From assembly GCF_013315695.1 (NCBI RefSeq), contig NZ_CP054353.1: DNA of 64,000 bases. One strand, 5' to 3'. A model generated the notes under the pieces. It made no database searches. It was not told the origin of the DNA and saw nothing but the letters and a program-made list of their open reading frames with translations. Below, in pieces: positions 1,409 through 40,464 of the stretch. The DNA comes from Escherichia coli. Its GTDB lineage: Bacteria; Pseudomonadota; Gammaproteobacteria; Enterobacterales; Enterobacteriaceae. Position 1 is the stretch's first letter. The number at the start of each line of letters is the position of its first letter. The translations under genes and the position numbers were made by a program.

Positions 1409-2508
1409 ATGAAATTTACCGTAGAACGTGAGCATTTATTAAAACCGCTACAACAGGTGAGCGGGCCGTTAGGTGGTCGTCCTACGCTACCGATTCTCGG
1501 TAATCTGCTGTTACAGGTTGCTGACGGTACGTTGTCGCTGACCGGTACTGATCTCGAGATGGAAATGGTGGCACGCGTTGCGCTGGTTCAGCCACACGAA
1601 CCAGGGGCGACGACCGTTCCAGCGCGCAAATTCTTTGATATCTGCCGTGGTCTGCCTGAAGGCGCGGAAATTGCCGTGCAGCTGGAAGGTGAGCGGATGC
1701 TGGTGCGCTCCGGGCGTAGCCGTTTTTCGCTGTCTACCCTGCCAGCGGCGGATTTCCCGAATCTTGATGACTGGCAGAGCGAAGTCGAATTTACCCTGCC
1801 GCAGGCGACGATGAAGCGTCTGATTGAAGCGACCCAGTTTTCTATGGCGCATCAGGACGTTCGCTATTACTTAAACGGTATGCTGTTCGAAACTGAAGGT
1901 GAAGAACTGCGCACCGTGGCGACCGATGGTCACCGTCTGGCGGTCTGTTCAATGCCAATTGGTCAATCTTTGCCAAGCCATTCGGTGATCGTGCCGCGTA
2001 AAGGCGTGATTGAACTGATGCGTATGCTCGACGGCGGCGACAATCCGCTGCGCGTGCAGATTGGCAGCAACAACATTCGCGCCCACGTTGGCGACTTTAT
2101 CTTCACCTCGAAACTGGTGGATGGTCGCTTCCCGGATTACCGTCGCGTTCTGCCGAAGAACCCGGACAAGCATCTGGAAGCTGGCTGTGATCTGCTCAAG
2201 CAGGCGTTTGCCCGTGCGGCAATTCTCTCTAACGAGAAATTCCGCGGCGTGCGTCTGTATGTCAGCGAAAACCAGCTGAAAATCACCGCCAACAACCCAG
2301 AACAGGAAGAAGCGGAAGAGATCCTCGACGTTACCTATAGCGGTGCGGAGATGGAAATCGGCTTCAACGTCAGCTATGTGCTGGATGTTCTCAACGCGCT
2401 GAAATGCGAAAACGTCCGCATGATGCTGACCGATTCGGTTTCCAGCGTGCAGATTGAAGATGCGGCCAGCCAGAGCGCGGCTTATGTTGTCATGCCAATG
2501 AGACTGTA

Positions 2509-2509
<1 letters not shown>
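1409..2509 (+). CDS. dnaN: DNA polymerase III beta sliding clamp, 366 aa
   Basis: ORF track; N-terminus [23 protein letters not shown]; immediately downstream of dnaA as in the dnaA operon. Confidence 0.97.
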
Positions 2510-6025
<3,516 letters not shown>

Positions 6026-6681: not shown

Positions 6682-7494
6682 ATGGCTATCAAACTCATTG
6701 CTATCGATATGGATGGCACCCTTCTGCTGCCCGATCACACCATTTCACCCGCCGTTAAAAATGCGATTGCCGCAGCTCGCGCCCGTGGCGTGAATGTCGT
6801 GCTGACGACGGGTCGCCCTTATGCAGGTGTTCACAATTACCTGAAAGAGCTGCATATGGAACAGCCGGGCGACTACTGCATTACTTATAACGGCGCGCTG
6901 GTACAGAAGGCCGCTGATGGTAGCACCGTGGCGCAAACCGCTCTCAGCTATGACGACTACCGTTTCCTGGAAAAACTCTCTCGCGAAGTCGGTTCTCATT
7001 TCCACGCCCTGGACCGCACCACGCTGTACACCGCCAACCGAGATATCAGCTACTACACGGTGCATGAATCTTTCGTTGCCACCATTCCACTGGTGTTCTG
7101 CGAAGCGGAGAAAATGGACCCCAATACCCAGTTCCTGAAAGTGATGATGATTGATGAACCCGCCATCCTCGACCAGGCCATTGCGCGTATTCCGCAGGAA
7201 GTGAAAGAAAAATACACTGTGCTGAAAAGTGCGCCGTACTTCCTCGAAATCCTCGATAAACGCGTTAACAAAGGTACGGGTGTGAAATCACTGGCCGACG
7301 TGTTAGGCATTAAGCCGGAAGAAGTCATGGCGATTGGCGATCAGGAAAACGACATCGCAATGATTGAATACGCAGGTGTTGGTGTGGCAATGGATAACGC
7401 TATTCCTTCGGTGAAAGAAGTGGCGAACTTTGTCACCAAATCCAACCTGGAAGATGGCGTGGCGTTTGCTATTGAGAAGTATGTGCTGAATTAA
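6682..7494 (+). CDS. yidA: HAD-superfamily sugar phosphatase YidA, 270 aa
   Basis: ORF track; HAD motif I (IAIDMDGTLL) near N-terminus. Confidence 0.93.
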   Translation: MAIKLIAIDMDGTLLLPDHTISPAVKNAIAAARARGVNVVLTTGRPYAGVHNYLKELHMEQPGDYCITYNGALVQKAADGSTVAQTALSYDDYRFLEKLSREVGSHFHALDRTTLYTANRDISYYTVHESFVATIPLVFCEAEKMDPNTQFLKVMMIDEPAILDQAIARIPQEVKEKYTVLKSAPYFLEILDKRVNKGTGVKSLADVLGIKPEEVMAIGDQENDIAMIEYAGVGVAMDNAIPSVKEVANFVTKSNLEDGVAFAIEKYVLN

Positions 7495-11589: not shown

Positions 11590-11598
11590 GGCGCGGAG
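11590..11598. repeat. IS1 target-site duplication, left copy (GGCGCGGAG)
   Basis: Identical 9-mer directly abuts both IS1 ends. Confidence 0.95.
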
Positions 11599-11653
11599 GG
11601 TGATGCTGCCAACTTACTGATTTAGTGTATGATGGTGTTTTTGAGGTGCTCCA

Positions 11654-11929
11654 GTGGCTTCTGTTTCTATCAGCTGTCCCTCCTGTTCAGCTACTGACGG
11701 GGTGGTGCGTAACGGCAAAAGCACCGCCGGACATCAGCGCTATCTCTGCTCTCACTGCCGTAAAACATGGCAACTGCAGTTCACTTACACCGCTTCTCAA
11801 CCCGGTACGCACCAGAAAATCATTGATATGGCCATGAATGGCGTTGGATGCCGGGCAACAGCCCGCATTATGGGCGTTGGCCTCAACACGATTTTACGTC
11901 ACTTAAAAAACTCAGGCCGCAGTCGGTAA
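11654..11929 (+). CDS. insA: IS1 InsA, 91 aa
   Basis: ORF track protein [39 protein letters not shown]..., recognised as IS1 InsA. Confidence 0.95.
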
Positions 11930-12351
11930 CCTCGCGCATACAGCCGGGCAGTGACGTCATCGTCTGCGCGGAAATGGACGAACAGTGGGGCTATGTCGGG
12001 GCTAAATCGCGCCAGCGCTGGCTGTTTTACGCGTATGACAGGCTCCGGAAGACGGTTGTTGCGCACGTATTCGGTGAACGCACTATGGCGACGCTGGGGC
12101 GTCTTATGAGCCTGCTGTCACCCTTTGACGTGGTGATATGGATGACGGATGGCTGGCCGCTGTATGAATCCCGCCTGAAGGGAAAGCTGCACGTAATCAG
12201 CAAGCGATATACGCAGCGAATTGAGCGGCATAACCTGAATCTGAGGCAGCACCTGGCACGGCTGGGACGGAAGTCGCTGTCGTTCTCAAAATCGGTGGAG
12301 CTGCATGACAAAGTCATCGGGCATTATCTGAACATAAAACACTATCAATAA
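11848..12351 (+). CDS. insB: IS1 InsB reading frame, 167 aa; expressed as the InsAB' transposase by -1 frameshift from insA
   Basis: ORF track 11848..12351 overlapping the insA 3' end in the -1 frame. Confidence 0.9.
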
Positions 12352-12366
12352 GTTGGAGTCATTACC

Positions 12367-18134: not shown

Positions 18135-19796
18135 ATGAGTGATATAGCATTAACGGTCAGTATTCTGGCTTTGGTGGCAGTCGTCGGTTTGTTTATCGGC
18201 AACGTCAAATTTCGCGGCATAGGATTAGGTATTGGCGGCGTGCTGTTTGGTGGGATCATCGTCGGCCATTTTGTTTCTCAGGCGGGGATGACATTAAGTA
18301 GCGATATGCTGCATGTTATTCAGGAATTTGGCCTGATCCTGTTCGTTTATACCATCGGGATTCAGGTAGGGCCGGGCTTCTTTGCCTCATTGCGCGTCTC
18401 CGGATTACGCCTCAACCTGTTTGCTGTTCTGATCGTCATCATCGGGGGTCTGGTTACCGCCATCCTGCATAAACTGTTTGATATTCCACTGCCGGTAGTG
18501 CTGGGGATTTTCTCCGGTGCGGTAACCAATACGCCAGCGCTGGGGGCAGGGCAGCAGATCTTGCGCGACCTGGGTACACCAATGGAAATGGTCGATCAGA
18601 TGGGGATGAGTTACGCGATGGCGTATCCATTCGGTATTTGCGGGATTTTGTTCACCATGTGGATGTTGCGGGTTATGTTCCGCGTCAATGTCGAGACAGA
18701 AGCCCAGCAGCACGAGTCTTCTCGCACCAATGGCGGCGCGCTGATCAGGACTATCAATATTCGCGTTGAGAACCCTAACCTGCATGATTTAGCCATTAAA
18801 GATGTACCGATTCTCAACGGCGACAAAATTATCTGCTCGCGTCTGAAACGCGAAGAAACCCTAAAAGTACCTTCGCCAGATACCATTATCCAACTGGGCG
18901 ATTTGCTGCATCTGGTGGGGCAGCCAGCGGATTTACATAATGCGCAACTGGTGATTGGTCAGGAGGTCGATACCTCGCTGTCCACGAAAGGCACTGATTT
19001 ACGCGTCGAGCGTGTGGTGGTCACCAATGAAAACGTGCTTGGTAAGCGTATTCGCGACCTGCACTTTAAAGAACGCTATGACGTTGTTATCTCGCGCCTG
19101 AACCGTGCCGGGGTCGAACTGGTCGCCAGTGGCGATATCAGCCTGCAGTTCGGCGATATCCTCAACCTGGTGGGGCGTCCGTCCGCAATTGATGCCGTTG
19201 CCAATGTGCTGGGGAATGCGCAGCAAAAACTGCAACAGGTTCAGATGTTGCCGGTGTTTATTGGTATCGGGCTTGGCGTATTGTTAGGTTCTATTCCCGT
19301 CTTTGTGCCGGGATTCCCGGCCGCGTTGAAACTGGGGCTGGCGGGCGGTCCGCTGATTATGGCGTTGATCCTCGGGCGTATCGGCAGTATCGGCAAGCTG
19401 TACTGGTTTATGCCGCCAAGTGCCAACCTCGCGCTGCGGGAGCTGGGGATCGTACTGTTCCTCTCGGTAGTGGGGCTGAAATCTGGTGGGGATTTTGTAA
19501 ATACCCTGGTCAATGGCGAAGGGCTAAGCTGGATTGGTTATGGTGCGCTGATCACCGCCGTTCCGCTGATTACTGTTGGCATTCTGGCGCGGATGTTAGC
19601 CAAAATGAATTACCTGACCATGTGCGGGATGCTGGCTGGCTCCATGACCGATCCACCGGCGCTGGCGTTTGCTAATAATCTTCATCCAACCAGCGGTGCG
19701 GCGGCGCTTTCTTACGCCACTGTCTATCCGTTGGTGATGTTCCTGCGCATTATCACCCCCCAATTACTGGCGGTGCTCTTCTGGAGTATCGGTTAA
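18135..19796 (+). CDS. yidE: Putative AAE-family transporter YidE with two TrkA-C domains, 553 aa
   Basis: ORF track 18111..19796; start at the ATG giving [20 protein letters not shown]. Confidence 0.9.
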
Positions 19797-20237
19797 CTCT
19801 TTTCCGGGTGGAGTCGCCGTAAATGGTACTCCACCTGGTATTCGCTGGCATTTCTGAACATTACTGAATAATTCAAAAACTCCCCGCTCTCGCTATATGA
19901 CAACGAGGTGATCCGCAGCAGTGGCGTGTGTTCCGCTACCTTCATTTGCCGCGCCAGCAGTCTATCGGCGAGCACCAGCGTCAGGCTTTCATAATTACCG
20001 CCAATCAGAATCCCGCACTCTTGTTCAATATATTCAAACTTCGACCCTTCCAGATGTTGCAGCGAAAGGTTACGGAACAGTTTTACCGGCATATAGCTGT
20101 CTTCCAGCATCAGCGGTTTCCCTTCCACAAAACGAACGCGACGGGAGAAGTAGATCTGCTCGTTGATTTGAATCCGTAACTGGCTGGCAATGGCCGGAGG
20201 CGCAGGCATGATTTCAAAAATCAGCACCTGGCTGGTG
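19793..20237 (-). pseudogene. yidP: 5'-truncated yidP (GntR-family regulator): only the C-terminal ~148 codons (effector/UTRA-type domain) remain
   Basis: Reading frame is open from the IS4 boundary at 20237 to the stop at 19793 with no ATG at its 5' end; the N-terminal HTH-encoding part is absent from the window. Confidence 0.8.
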
Positions 20238-20255
20238 TAATGCCGATCAGTTAAG
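20238..20255. repeat. IS4 left terminal inverted repeat
   Basis: TAATGCCGATCAGTTAAG matches the reverse complement of the right end in 16 of 18 positions. Confidence 0.85.
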
Positions 20256-20321
20256 GATCAGTTGACCGATCCAGTGGCTGTGTAAGAATCCGGAAACGCT
20301 CACTTGTTTCCGGATTTTTTT

Positions 20322-21650
20322 ATGCACATTGGACAGGCTCTTGATCTGGTATCCCGTTACGATTCTCTGCGTAACCCACTGACTTCTCTGGGGGATTACC
20401 TCGACCCCGAACTCATCTCTCGTTGCCTTGCCGAATCAGGTACTGTAACGCTACGCAAGCGCCGTCTTCCCCTCGAAATGATGGTCTGGTGTATTGTTGG
20501 CATGGCGCTTGAGCGTAAAGAACCTCTTCACCAGATTGTGAATCGCCTGGACATCATGCTGCCGGGCAATCGCCCCTTCGTTGCCCCCAGTGCCGTTATT
20601 CAGGCCCGCCAGCGCCTGGGAAGTGAGGCTGTCCGCCGCGTGTTCACGAAAACAGCGCAGCTCTGGCATAACGCCACGCCGCATCCGCACTGGTGCGGCC
20701 TGACCCTGCTGGCCATCGATGGTGTGTTCTGGCGCACACCGGATACACCAGAGAACGATGCAGCCTTCCCCCGCCAGACACATGCCGGGAACCCGGCGCT
20801 CTACCCGCAGGTCAAAATGGTCTGCCAGATGGAACTGACCAGCCATCTGCTGACGGCTGCAGCCTTCGGCACGATGAAGAACAGCGAAAATGAGCTTGCT
20901 GAGCAACTTATAGAACAAACCGGCGATAACACTCTGACGTTAATGGATAAAGGTTATTACTCACTGGGACTGTTAAATGCCTGGAGCCTGGCGGGAGAAC
21001 ACCGCCACTGGATGATACCTCTCAGAAAGGGAGCGCAATATGAAGAGATCAGAAAACTGGGTAAAGGCGATCATCTGGTGAAGCTGAAAACCAGCCCGCA
21101 GGCACGAAAAAAGTGGCCGGGACTGGGAAATGAAGTGACAGCCCGCCTGCTGACCGTGACGCGCAAAGGAAAAGTCTGCCATCTGCTGACGTCGATGACG
21201 GACGCCATGCGCTTCCCCGGAGGAGAAATGGCGGATCTGTACAGTCATCGCTGGGAAATCGAACTGGGATACAGGGAGATAAAACAGACGATGCAACTGA
21301 GCAGGCTGACGCTGAGAAGTAAAAAACCGGAGCTTGTGGAGCAAGAGCTGTGGGGTGTCTTACTGGCTTATAATCTGGTGAGATATCAGATGATTAAAAT
21401 GGCGGAACATCTGAAAGGTTACTGGCCGAATCAACTGAGTTTCTCAGAATCATGCGGAATGGTGATGAGAATGCTGATGACATTGCAGGGCGCTTCACCG
21501 GGACGTATACCGGAGCTGATGCGCGATCTTGCAAGTATGGGACAACTTGTGAAATTACCGACAAGAAGGGAAAGGGCCTTCCCGAGAGTGGTAAAGGAGA
21601 GGCCCTGGAAATACCCCACAGCCCCGAAAAAGAGCCAGTCAGTTGCTTAA
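20322..21650 (+). CDS. insG: IS4 transposase, 442 aa
   Basis: ORF track 20304..21650; start at the ATG giving [24 protein letters not shown], recognised as the IS4 transposase. Confidence 0.92.
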
Positions 21651-21663
21651 CTGACTGGCATTA
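21646..21663. repeat. IS4 right terminal inverted repeat
   Basis: Reverse complement TAATGCCAGTCAGTTAAG. Confidence 0.85.
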
Positions 21664-21808
21664 CTCAAAGGGGGGGTATTTTTCTTTGAGCCAGGTTAAT
21701 GTGGCCGCATTTAGGAGTACGATTTTGCCGTTAATCGTGCATACTGTGCGCTTTTTTGTGGGCCAAGGGACTAAGCACACATTTCATATTTCAACGAAAG
21801 ACTAGTCT

Positions 21809-31999: not shown

Positions 32000-32090
32000 G
32001 CGCCACCACTGACACGGAACAACGGCAAACACGCCGCCGGGTCAGCGGGGTTCTCCTGAGAATTCCGGCAGAGAAAGCAAAAATAAATGC

Positions 32091-38946: not shown

Positions 38947-40464
38947 TGTCAGTAGTTTTTGCAGATGGATGAGCAAACGGTCAATGGCACGATAGCTAAC
39001 TGCCTCCTGCAAATGCTGACGTGTGATAATGTCGGACTGATCAATATCAGCAATGGTTCGTGCAACTTTCAGTAACCGCTGCCAGGCACGAATCGATAAC
39101 CCCAGATGGATCAGCGTTTCTTCCAGCCACTGCGCATCTTCGCTCTCAAGCTTGCAGAATTGGCGTATTTCCGGATTATCCAGCCAGGCGTTCAGTTTAT
39201 TCTGCCGCTTAAATTGGCGCTCTCTGGCGGCCATTACACGTTGTTTAACGGTGGTGCTGTTTTCTCCCTGCACTACCGTTTTACTCAAAATGCCGGGGGG
39301 CGGTAATGGGATCTCTAGTGAGAGATCGAAGCGGTCGAGAAAGGGCCCCGAGAGCCGGTTGAGATAACGTAATGTCTGTTCTGGTGTGCAGCGGTTATGG
39401 TTTCCCTGATAATGTCCGGTAGGGCTGGGATTCATCGCCGCGACAAGCTGGAAACGGGCTGGATAGGTTATTTTTGCTCGTGTGCGTGAAAGATGGATCT
39501 GCCCGGATTCAATCGGCTCTCGCAAGGCATCCAGTGTACGCCGTTCAAATTCAGGTAGCTCATCAAGAAAAAGCACGCCGTTATGCGCCAGCGAAATTTC
39601 ACCTGGCCCTGGAATTGCACCACCGCCCACCATCGCAGTTAACGACGCACTGTGATGAGGTGAGCGGAATGGGCGCTGCCGCCATTGTTTTTGTACTGAT
39701 TCAGCATTTACCAGACTTAATATCGCAGCGCTCTCCAGTGCCTCTTCATTGCTTAAATCTGGCAACAGGCCATTAATACGGCTGGCGAGCATTGTTTTAC
39801 CTGTTCCCGGCGGCCCAATCAGTAAAAGGTTGTGCCCGCCAGCGGCGGTAATTTCCAGTCCTCGCTTTCCTTGCTCCTGACCGACAACATCACTGAGATC
39901 ATGTTGTAGCGCCCGGGATACTGCATCAGTTGGTTTCGGGCGTTCGAGAGCGTGCTTACCCTCCAGAAACGCACAGACAGCCTGCAGATGATCGGCTATC
40001 AGGCATCCTTCACCGTTAATTAGCCCCACTTCATCCTCGTTATCTTTCGCGACGATAATTTTTCTGCCCGACTTAATGGCTTCAGTTGCACTGGAGATTG
40101 CGCCGGGAACGGCACGCAGAGCGCCTGTAAGCGCCAGTTCTCCGACTAATTCATATTCATCTAACTTATTGGCTGTAAGCTGTTCTGAGGCTGCCAGCAA
40201 CGCAATGGCGATAGGTAAATCATATCGTCCCCCTTCTTTTGGCAGATCGGCTGGAGCAAGGTTGATGGTGATTTTTTTCGCCGGATATTCATATCCGCTA
40301 TTGATAATGGCGCTGCGCACGCGATCGCGAGCTTCTTTTACCGTTGTTTCTGGTAAGCCCACCATCGTTAAGCCTGGTAGACCTTTACTGATATGTACCT
40401 CAACAGTGATTGGGGGCGCATTTACTCCCAGGGCTGCGCGGGTATGAACAATTGACAGTGACAT
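38944..40464 (-). CDS. comM: Mg-chelatase-like AAA+ ATPase ComM (YifB), 506 aa
   Basis: ORF track 38944..40494; start at the ATG giving MSLSIVHTRAALGVNAPPITVEV with GGAGGG Shine-Dalgarno upstream. Confidence 0.92.
   Translation of the reverse strand: MSLSIVHTRAALGVNAPPITVEVHISKGLPGLTMVGLPETTVKEARDRVRSAIINSGYEYPAKKITINLAPADLPKEGGRYDLPIAIALLAASEQLTANKLDEYELVGELALTGALRAVPGAISSATEAIKSGRKIIVAKDNEDEVGLINGEGCLIADHLQAVCAFLEGKHALERPKPTDAVSRALQHDLSDVVGQEQGKRGLEITAAGGHNLLLIGPPGTGKTMLASRINGLLPDLSNEEALESAAILSLVNAESVQKQWRQRPFRSPHHSASLTAMVGGGAIPGPGEISLAHNGVLFLDELPEFERRTLDALREPIESGQIHLSRTRAKITYPARFQLVAAMNPSPTGHYQGNHNRCTPEQTLRYLNRLSGPFLDRFDLSLEIPLPPPGILSKTVVQGENSTTVKQRVMAARERQFKRQNKLNAWLDNPEIRQFCKLESEDAQWLEETLIHLGLSIRAWQRLLKVARTIADIDQSDIITRQHLQEAVSYRAIDRLLIHLQKLLT

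Follow-up and report, generated by a model that had tools for sequence, protein, structure and literature searches.

In the window analysed here (the whole stretch of 64,000 nucleotides, one strand, from the Escherichia coli contig NZ_CP054353.1, assembly GCF_013315695.1), the intact kup gene is preceded by a complete IS4, on the far side of which lies a 3′ remnant of yidP instead of ravA. This structure (IS4, junction and gap) is read directly from the sequence. It corresponds to a standard IS4 at a preferred target combined with a standard IS-mediated inversion. The reading considered probable is that IS4 was inserted at position -145 from kup, that recombination then led to an inversion, and that kup is still expressed mainly from its proximal promoter (P1) at a roughly normal level; the outcome for kup expression is one that we infer from the sequence. 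A previous sequence-only reading of the same DNA dealt with the shortening of the kup upstream region. The recurrent hot spot, the inversion junction and the yidP fragment on the far side are absent from it.

Features of the yidP′-IS4-kup region. Positions are those of the window; negative positions are counted from the kup start codon.
Feature	Position	Strand	Basis or remark
yidP (GntR-family regulator), 3′ remnant, truncated by IS4	19793-20237	-	144-aa ORF
Left target duplication copy CACCTGGCTGGTG, of the yidP insertion	20225-20237		13 bp
Complete IS4	20238-21663	+	1426 bp; 18-bp imperfect terminal inverted repeats
IS4 left-end promoter-like site, predicted hairpin and U7 run	20262-20320	+	Directly before ATG 20322
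IS4 transposase ORF	20304/20322-21650	+	Single ORF, same direction as kup
IS4 right-end predicted hairpin	21634-21659	+	Fold; + strand without U-run
Weak hybrid-promoter candidate	21655-21682	+	-35 CTGGCA (IS4 right repeat), 16 nt, resident -10 TATTTT
Retained part of the ravA-kup intergenic region	21664-21808	+	145 bp of 222 bp
Right target duplication copy CTCAAAGGGGGG, of the ravA-kup insertion	21664-21675		12 bp
Imperfect palindrome CTCAAAGGGGG..TTTTCTTTGAG	21664-21690		Fold; kup-side part of the IS4 target motif
Near-invariant core (-98 to -30, about 70 nt), includes P1	21711-21779	+	46-species alignment
P1: -10 CATACT at 21740-21745 (-69 to -64), 5′ end at -57 (about 21752)	21740-21752	+	K-12 5′ RACE
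kup, intact, 622 aa	21809-23677	+	NF008015 equivalog, full length, E=0

IS4 and its mixed flanks

The ends of the window IS4 are the terminal repeats TAATGCCGATCAGTTAAG and CTTAACTGACTGGCATTA. Its transposase matches the profile NF033592 (transpos_IS4_1) with E=9e-91 and 304 bits (cut-off: 115). The IS4 of E. coli K-12, founding member of the IS4 family, shares with it the length of 1426 bp, the 18-bp repeats, the single DDE ORF, the duplications of 11-13 bp and the strong target specificity; no structural difference was found between the two. K-12 MG1655 carries one IS4 copy. About 18 places per genome are occupied by IS4 in the lineage of the window.

For the transposase, the annotation uses the TTG at 20304, with a product of 448 aa. 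An in-frame ATG at 20322, which directly follows the left-end hairpin and its U-run, looks like the likelier start; the protein would then have 442 aa. The promoter-like site of the left end was found by the promoter scan (TTGACC, 16 nt, AAGAAT with TG). The hairpin followed by U7 (20284-20320; -20.6 kcal/mol, z=-4.1 by folding) is predicted and probably blocks transcription coming into IS4 from yidE. The right-end hairpin is terminator-like on the - strand only; since the + strand has no U-run there, some read-through from the transposase gene to kup would be possible.

Upstream of IS4, the window carries ibpA, ibpB and yidE (+ strand), then the yidP fragment (- strand); ravA is not found there. 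The yidP remnant covers only positions 100-231 of the 240-position profile NF007292; MSB1_4I (NZ_LR898874.1), the closest genome, whose record is rotated to start at dnaA, has it annotated as a partial GntR regulator. Positions 1-21664 of the window are those of MSB1_4I 1-21664 with 1 mismatch, and positions 20237-64000 are the reverse complement of MSB1_4I 5226758-5182996 with 99.98% identity. MSB1_4I harbours two simple IS4 insertions, 20238-21663 (+ strand) and 5225332-5226757 (- strand), which are inverted relative to each other and 100% identical. One is located in yidP, the other between ravA and kup, each with its own duplication. The window IS4 is 100% identical to both.

In MSB1_4I, CACCTGGCTGGTG flanks yidP::IS4 on both sides; in the window, it is found on the left side only. 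At the ravA-kup site, CTCAAAGGGGGG is found on both sides of IS4 in MSB1_4I and in strain MS 21-1. The flanks of the window IS4 are therefore mixed, the left one being CACCTGGCTGGTG and the right one CTCAAAGGGGGG. Such a pairing, to which each parental site contributes one duplication, is the mark left by homologous recombination of two inverted copies, and the junction indicates a probable inversion, between two IS4 copies, of a segment of ~71.6 kb including dnaA, oriC and ravA. The window spans one of the two expected junctions; the reciprocal one (ravA-IS4-yidP5′) is expected ~52.8 kb before window position 1, where the circular chromosome has its far end. A deletion instead of an inversion was rejected: it would lose dnaA and oriC, and the orientation of the flanks is inverted.

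The window and MSB1_4I differ at few positions, which cluster directly upstream of and inside the rRNA operon, with a small multi-base patch at 32064-32084 and one SNP in each of the 16S and 23S genes (32482 and 35677, respectively). Two more single SNPs are present, one at 39089 and one at 6823 inside the annotated yidA CDS. From these differences, the window would belong to another isolate or assembly, though a very closely related one. Several metabolic genes are disrupted by IS elements in this lineage. An IS1 copy (11597-12366 of the window) interrupts dgoD, which encodes galactonate dehydratase, and an identical IS1 interrupts tnaB in MSB1_4I (locus L003, 42212-42981).

Two other origins of the yidP′-IS4-kup junction were considered. 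It is quite improbable that the assembly took a wrong path through identical repeats of 1426 bp and that the true order is that of MSB1_4I. In favour of such an error, the junction was found in none of 5426 complete E. coli genomes, and yidP::IS4 is present in only two of these, MSB1_4I and AF3, which are the two closest genomes and are both un-inverted. Short reads cannot resolve a repeat whose two copies are 100% identical. Long reads, however, easily span a repeat of 1.4 kb, the join at the IS4 ends is exact to the base, and the joined flanks are oriented exactly as predicted for recombination between inverted repeats. Inversions of this kind are, moreover, common in IS-rich E. coli. An origin by transposition, for example intramolecular transposition of IS4, in place of recombination of pre-existing copies, is extremely improbable. 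IS elements can generate adjacent inversions or deletions when they transpose, but the flanks carry the exact duplications of the two simple insertions of MSB1_4I and no new duplication, and recombination of those copies suffices with no further event.

Under the preferred reading (two insertions, then recombination), an ancestor of the strain would have acquired IS4 at a target made of an A-run, a palindrome and a T-run, 145 bp upstream of kup, with duplication of CTCAAAGGGGGG. A second, identical IS4 would have entered yidP in the opposite orientation. Homologous recombination of the inverted copies would then have flipped the segment that includes yidP′, yidE, ibpBA, dnaA, oriC and ravA, leaving yidP′ on the far side of the IS4 adjacent to kup.

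The ravA-kup spacer as a recurrent IS4 target

The reference arrangement described in the sequence-only reading, in which ravA and kup are divergent and separated by a longer intergenic region, was confirmed: the spacer is 222 bp long in K-12 MG1655 and SMS-3-5. The distance given there for the IS4 right end was exact. The last base of IS4 is 21663 and the first of kup is 21809, which leaves a gap of exactly 145 bp. Its sequence is the same as that of the 145 bp nearest to kup in the K-12 and SMS-3-5 spacer. The proposed comparison with the reference shows a loss of the distal 77 of the 222 bp; this ravA-side part is absent throughout the 64-kb window.

An IS4-kup junction identical to that of the window was found in 36 of the 5426 complete E. 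coli genomes. The ravA-IS4 junction is also present in all 36, at 1426 bp from the kup junction in the genomes checked. These genomes, all with the same IS4 orientation as the window, carry several different ravA-flank haplotypes. In another 36, this ravA-kup position is occupied by an IS4 of opposite orientation (total: 72/5426). In MS 21-1, the one flipped genome checked (IS4 at 2075-3500 of locus L068), the 12-bp duplication is also CTCAAAGGGGGG. The flipped set includes OV2 and tolC-, whose source is recorded as laboratory and which have two IS4 places each in the search. An in-place flip that keeps the duplication is not expected from recombination, which suggests that the two orientations arose by independent insertions.

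The target was reconstructed from 11 IS4 insertions with a perfect duplication: yidP, ravA-kup in both orientations, lysS-idi, ldr-ldr near chaA, tynA-feaB, fumC-fumB, fieF-ogrK, cueR, atoC and ompX-opgE. A 12th site, fiu, has no perfect duplication. In all 11 reconstructed targets, a GC-rich palindrome, which becomes the duplication, is preceded by an A-run and followed by a T-run. In MSB1_4I, 13 bp are duplicated at yidP and 12 bp at kup; of the nine other sites, eight have a duplication of 11-13 bp. The kup site fits this symmetric motif, with AAAATAGT and GTATTTTT on either side of the duplicated CTCAAAGGGGGG. Several of the IS4 targets are obvious bidirectional terminators, and many lie between convergent genes (tynA-feaB, fumC-fumB, ompX-opgE, lysS-idi). 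At such terminator-like targets, insertion of IS4 would often split a terminator. A "spectacular apparent insertion specificity", with a strong specificity for the target arms, was described for the IS4 subgroup (PMC2266710). No paper reporting ravA-kup as an IS4 target was found in the literature searched (IS4 and kup, E. coli).

Promoters retained and lost upstream of kup

Directed 5′ RACE in K-12 placed kup 5′ ends at -57 (P1) and -213 (P2) from the start codon (Mendoza-Vargas 2009, PLoS One 4:e7526, Table S1), either of which could be a processing site as 5′ triphosphates were not assayed in that study. The same table gives a ravA (yieN) 5′ end at -38 with the -10 element TCTATACT. The predicted -10/-35 boxes of the two kup rows look swapped in this table. 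GCCATAAT, at about -227 to -220, fits the -213 end, and ATTTTGCCG, at -87 to -79, fits the -57 end.

The 5′ end and -10 element of P1 are inside the retained 145 bp. P2 (-10 CATAAT) is in the lost distal 77 bp and is cut off from kup. The loss of upstream regulatory sequence envisaged in the sequence-only reading thus holds for P2 but not for P1 or the conserved core described below; likewise, the native promoter is within the retained segment as regards the -57 end and its -10 element, and outside it as regards the -213 end. Loss of P2 could matter for kup under some condition.

Both -10 elements had been picked independently of the RACE table. CATAAT ending at -220 was selected by a home-made sigma-70 matrix, which also selected TATACT for ravA. 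CATACT was read from the alignment, at a position that predicts a start near -57. The best matrix score in the native spacer was that of TATAGA-17-TAAAAT (-10 ending at -149); this candidate matches no mapped 5′ end and was rejected.

Conservation was assessed in 46 Enterobacteriaceae species by alignment of the 300 bp that precede kup in each. The near-invariant core comprises TTAGGGGTACGATTT, about 9-10 variable nt, ATCGTGCATACTGTGCGC, a T-run, then GTGGGCCAAGGGACTAAGCACAC; its sequence elements are GTACGAT/ATCGTGC and GTGGGCCAAGGGACTAAGCAC. The inverted repeat GTACGAT/ATCGTGC encloses the 9-10 variable nucleotides. Conservation is also high at -182 to -173, in a second block, GCGAGTATAG, which corresponds to the -10 element of ravA. 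The IS4 insertion point (around -145) is in the least conserved part of the spacer among these species. The core gave chance-level matches only against Rfam, and RNAalifold found almost no covariation in it (covariation term: -0.28 kcal/mol). The weak hairpin and T-run at 21736-21756 fold no better than shuffled sequences (z=-0.27). An RNA element in the kup leader is therefore not supported. An ERIC-like element of about 110 nt is found between the core and the kup ribosome-binding site in four taxa only (Salmonella enterica subsp. arizonae and diarizonae, Klebsiella indica and K. spallanzanii). Since this element separates the core from the ribosome-binding site, the core would act at a distance, like a promoter or an operator. 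Its conservation seems to exceed the needs of a plain promoter, and it may be an unstudied operator or leader of kup. The gene is absent from the supplements of Kim 2012, Cho 2014 and SMRT-Cappable-seq and from Shimada 2014, and no E. coli paper on a "kup promoter" was found in the literature searched.

A meaningful change in kup expression, and hence in K+ uptake via Kup, through loss of P2, a hybrid promoter or read-through, is rather unlikely. P2 is cut off, but P1 and the whole conserved core are kept. The sequence-only reading had proposed that a hybrid promoter could be created, and one weak candidate does exist (CTGGCA-16-TATTTT). As in known IS hybrid promoters, in which a -35 element of the IS end is combined with a resident -10 element, CTGGCA faces outward and is 16 nt from TATTTT; the match here is, however, weak, no better than the native sequence, and the conserved promoter lies 60 bp further downstream. 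The candidate scores 7.4 with the home-made matrix, versus 7.5 for the native CTAAAA-17-TATTTT; the K-12 5′ RACE table lists no 5′ end near TATTTT; the promoter scan found no promoter-like site between 21300 and 21900. A hybrid promoter at the IS4 end is thus speculative. Some read-through would be possible, as the transposase gene has the same direction as kup and no U-run accompanies the right-end hairpin on the + strand. That the insertion recurs in 72 genomes might in principle be due to selection, but the 36 versus 36 orientations fit a target preference better than selection for a single regulatory outcome. In addition, kup is described as constitutively expressed (PMC5458449). It is very doubtful that the ravA-kup insertions are recurrently selected, either because kup is uncoupled from its distal promoter or because control of ravA-viaA is disturbed, or, separately, that the 70-nt core is an unrecognised kup operator or leader.

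Under the preferred reading, with kup expressed mainly from P1, the original insertion and not the inversion would be the event that matters for kup, by separating it from the distal promoter and the ravA side of the spacer. The proximal promoter (-57) and the leader would be intact and would provide most kup transcription, to which minor read-through from the co-directional transposase gene would perhaps add.

The probable inversion around oriC and its significance

As the IS4 copies inside which recombination occurred are identical, the sequence in front of kup does not differ over 1.57 kb from that of the un-inverted relative, and no effect on kup is therefore expected from the inversion itself. 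From the coordinates, kup would lie about 68 kb from oriC after the inversion, instead of about 7 kb, and would still be co-directional with replication. The inverted segment extends about 5 kb from oriC on one side but 66 kb on the other, and this asymmetry would displace oriC by about 60 kb with respect to the remainder of the chromosome.

The rrnD-rrnE inversion of E. coli W3110 reportedly arose by recombination between inverted repeats located on either side of oriC. In both cases, the origin segment is flipped and the orientation of genes relative to replication is preserved. Unlike in W3110, the repeats are here IS4 copies only ~72 kb apart and the segment is asymmetric about oriC.

The exact Kup protein of the window is widespread among the contigs encoding Kup that were searched; the contexts returned were all native ravA-kup ones, with no further inverted genome among them. 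As the conserved proximal promoter and the kup gene are intact, the insertion would probably be of little weight for K+ transport. The genomes compared here document the ravA-kup spacer as a natural target that IS4 hits repeatedly, with a clear terminator-like motif, and the region upstream of kup has an unusually conserved core that is seemingly unstudied. The within-clone inversion over oriC and dnaA would be an example of IS4 expansion reshaping the origin region.
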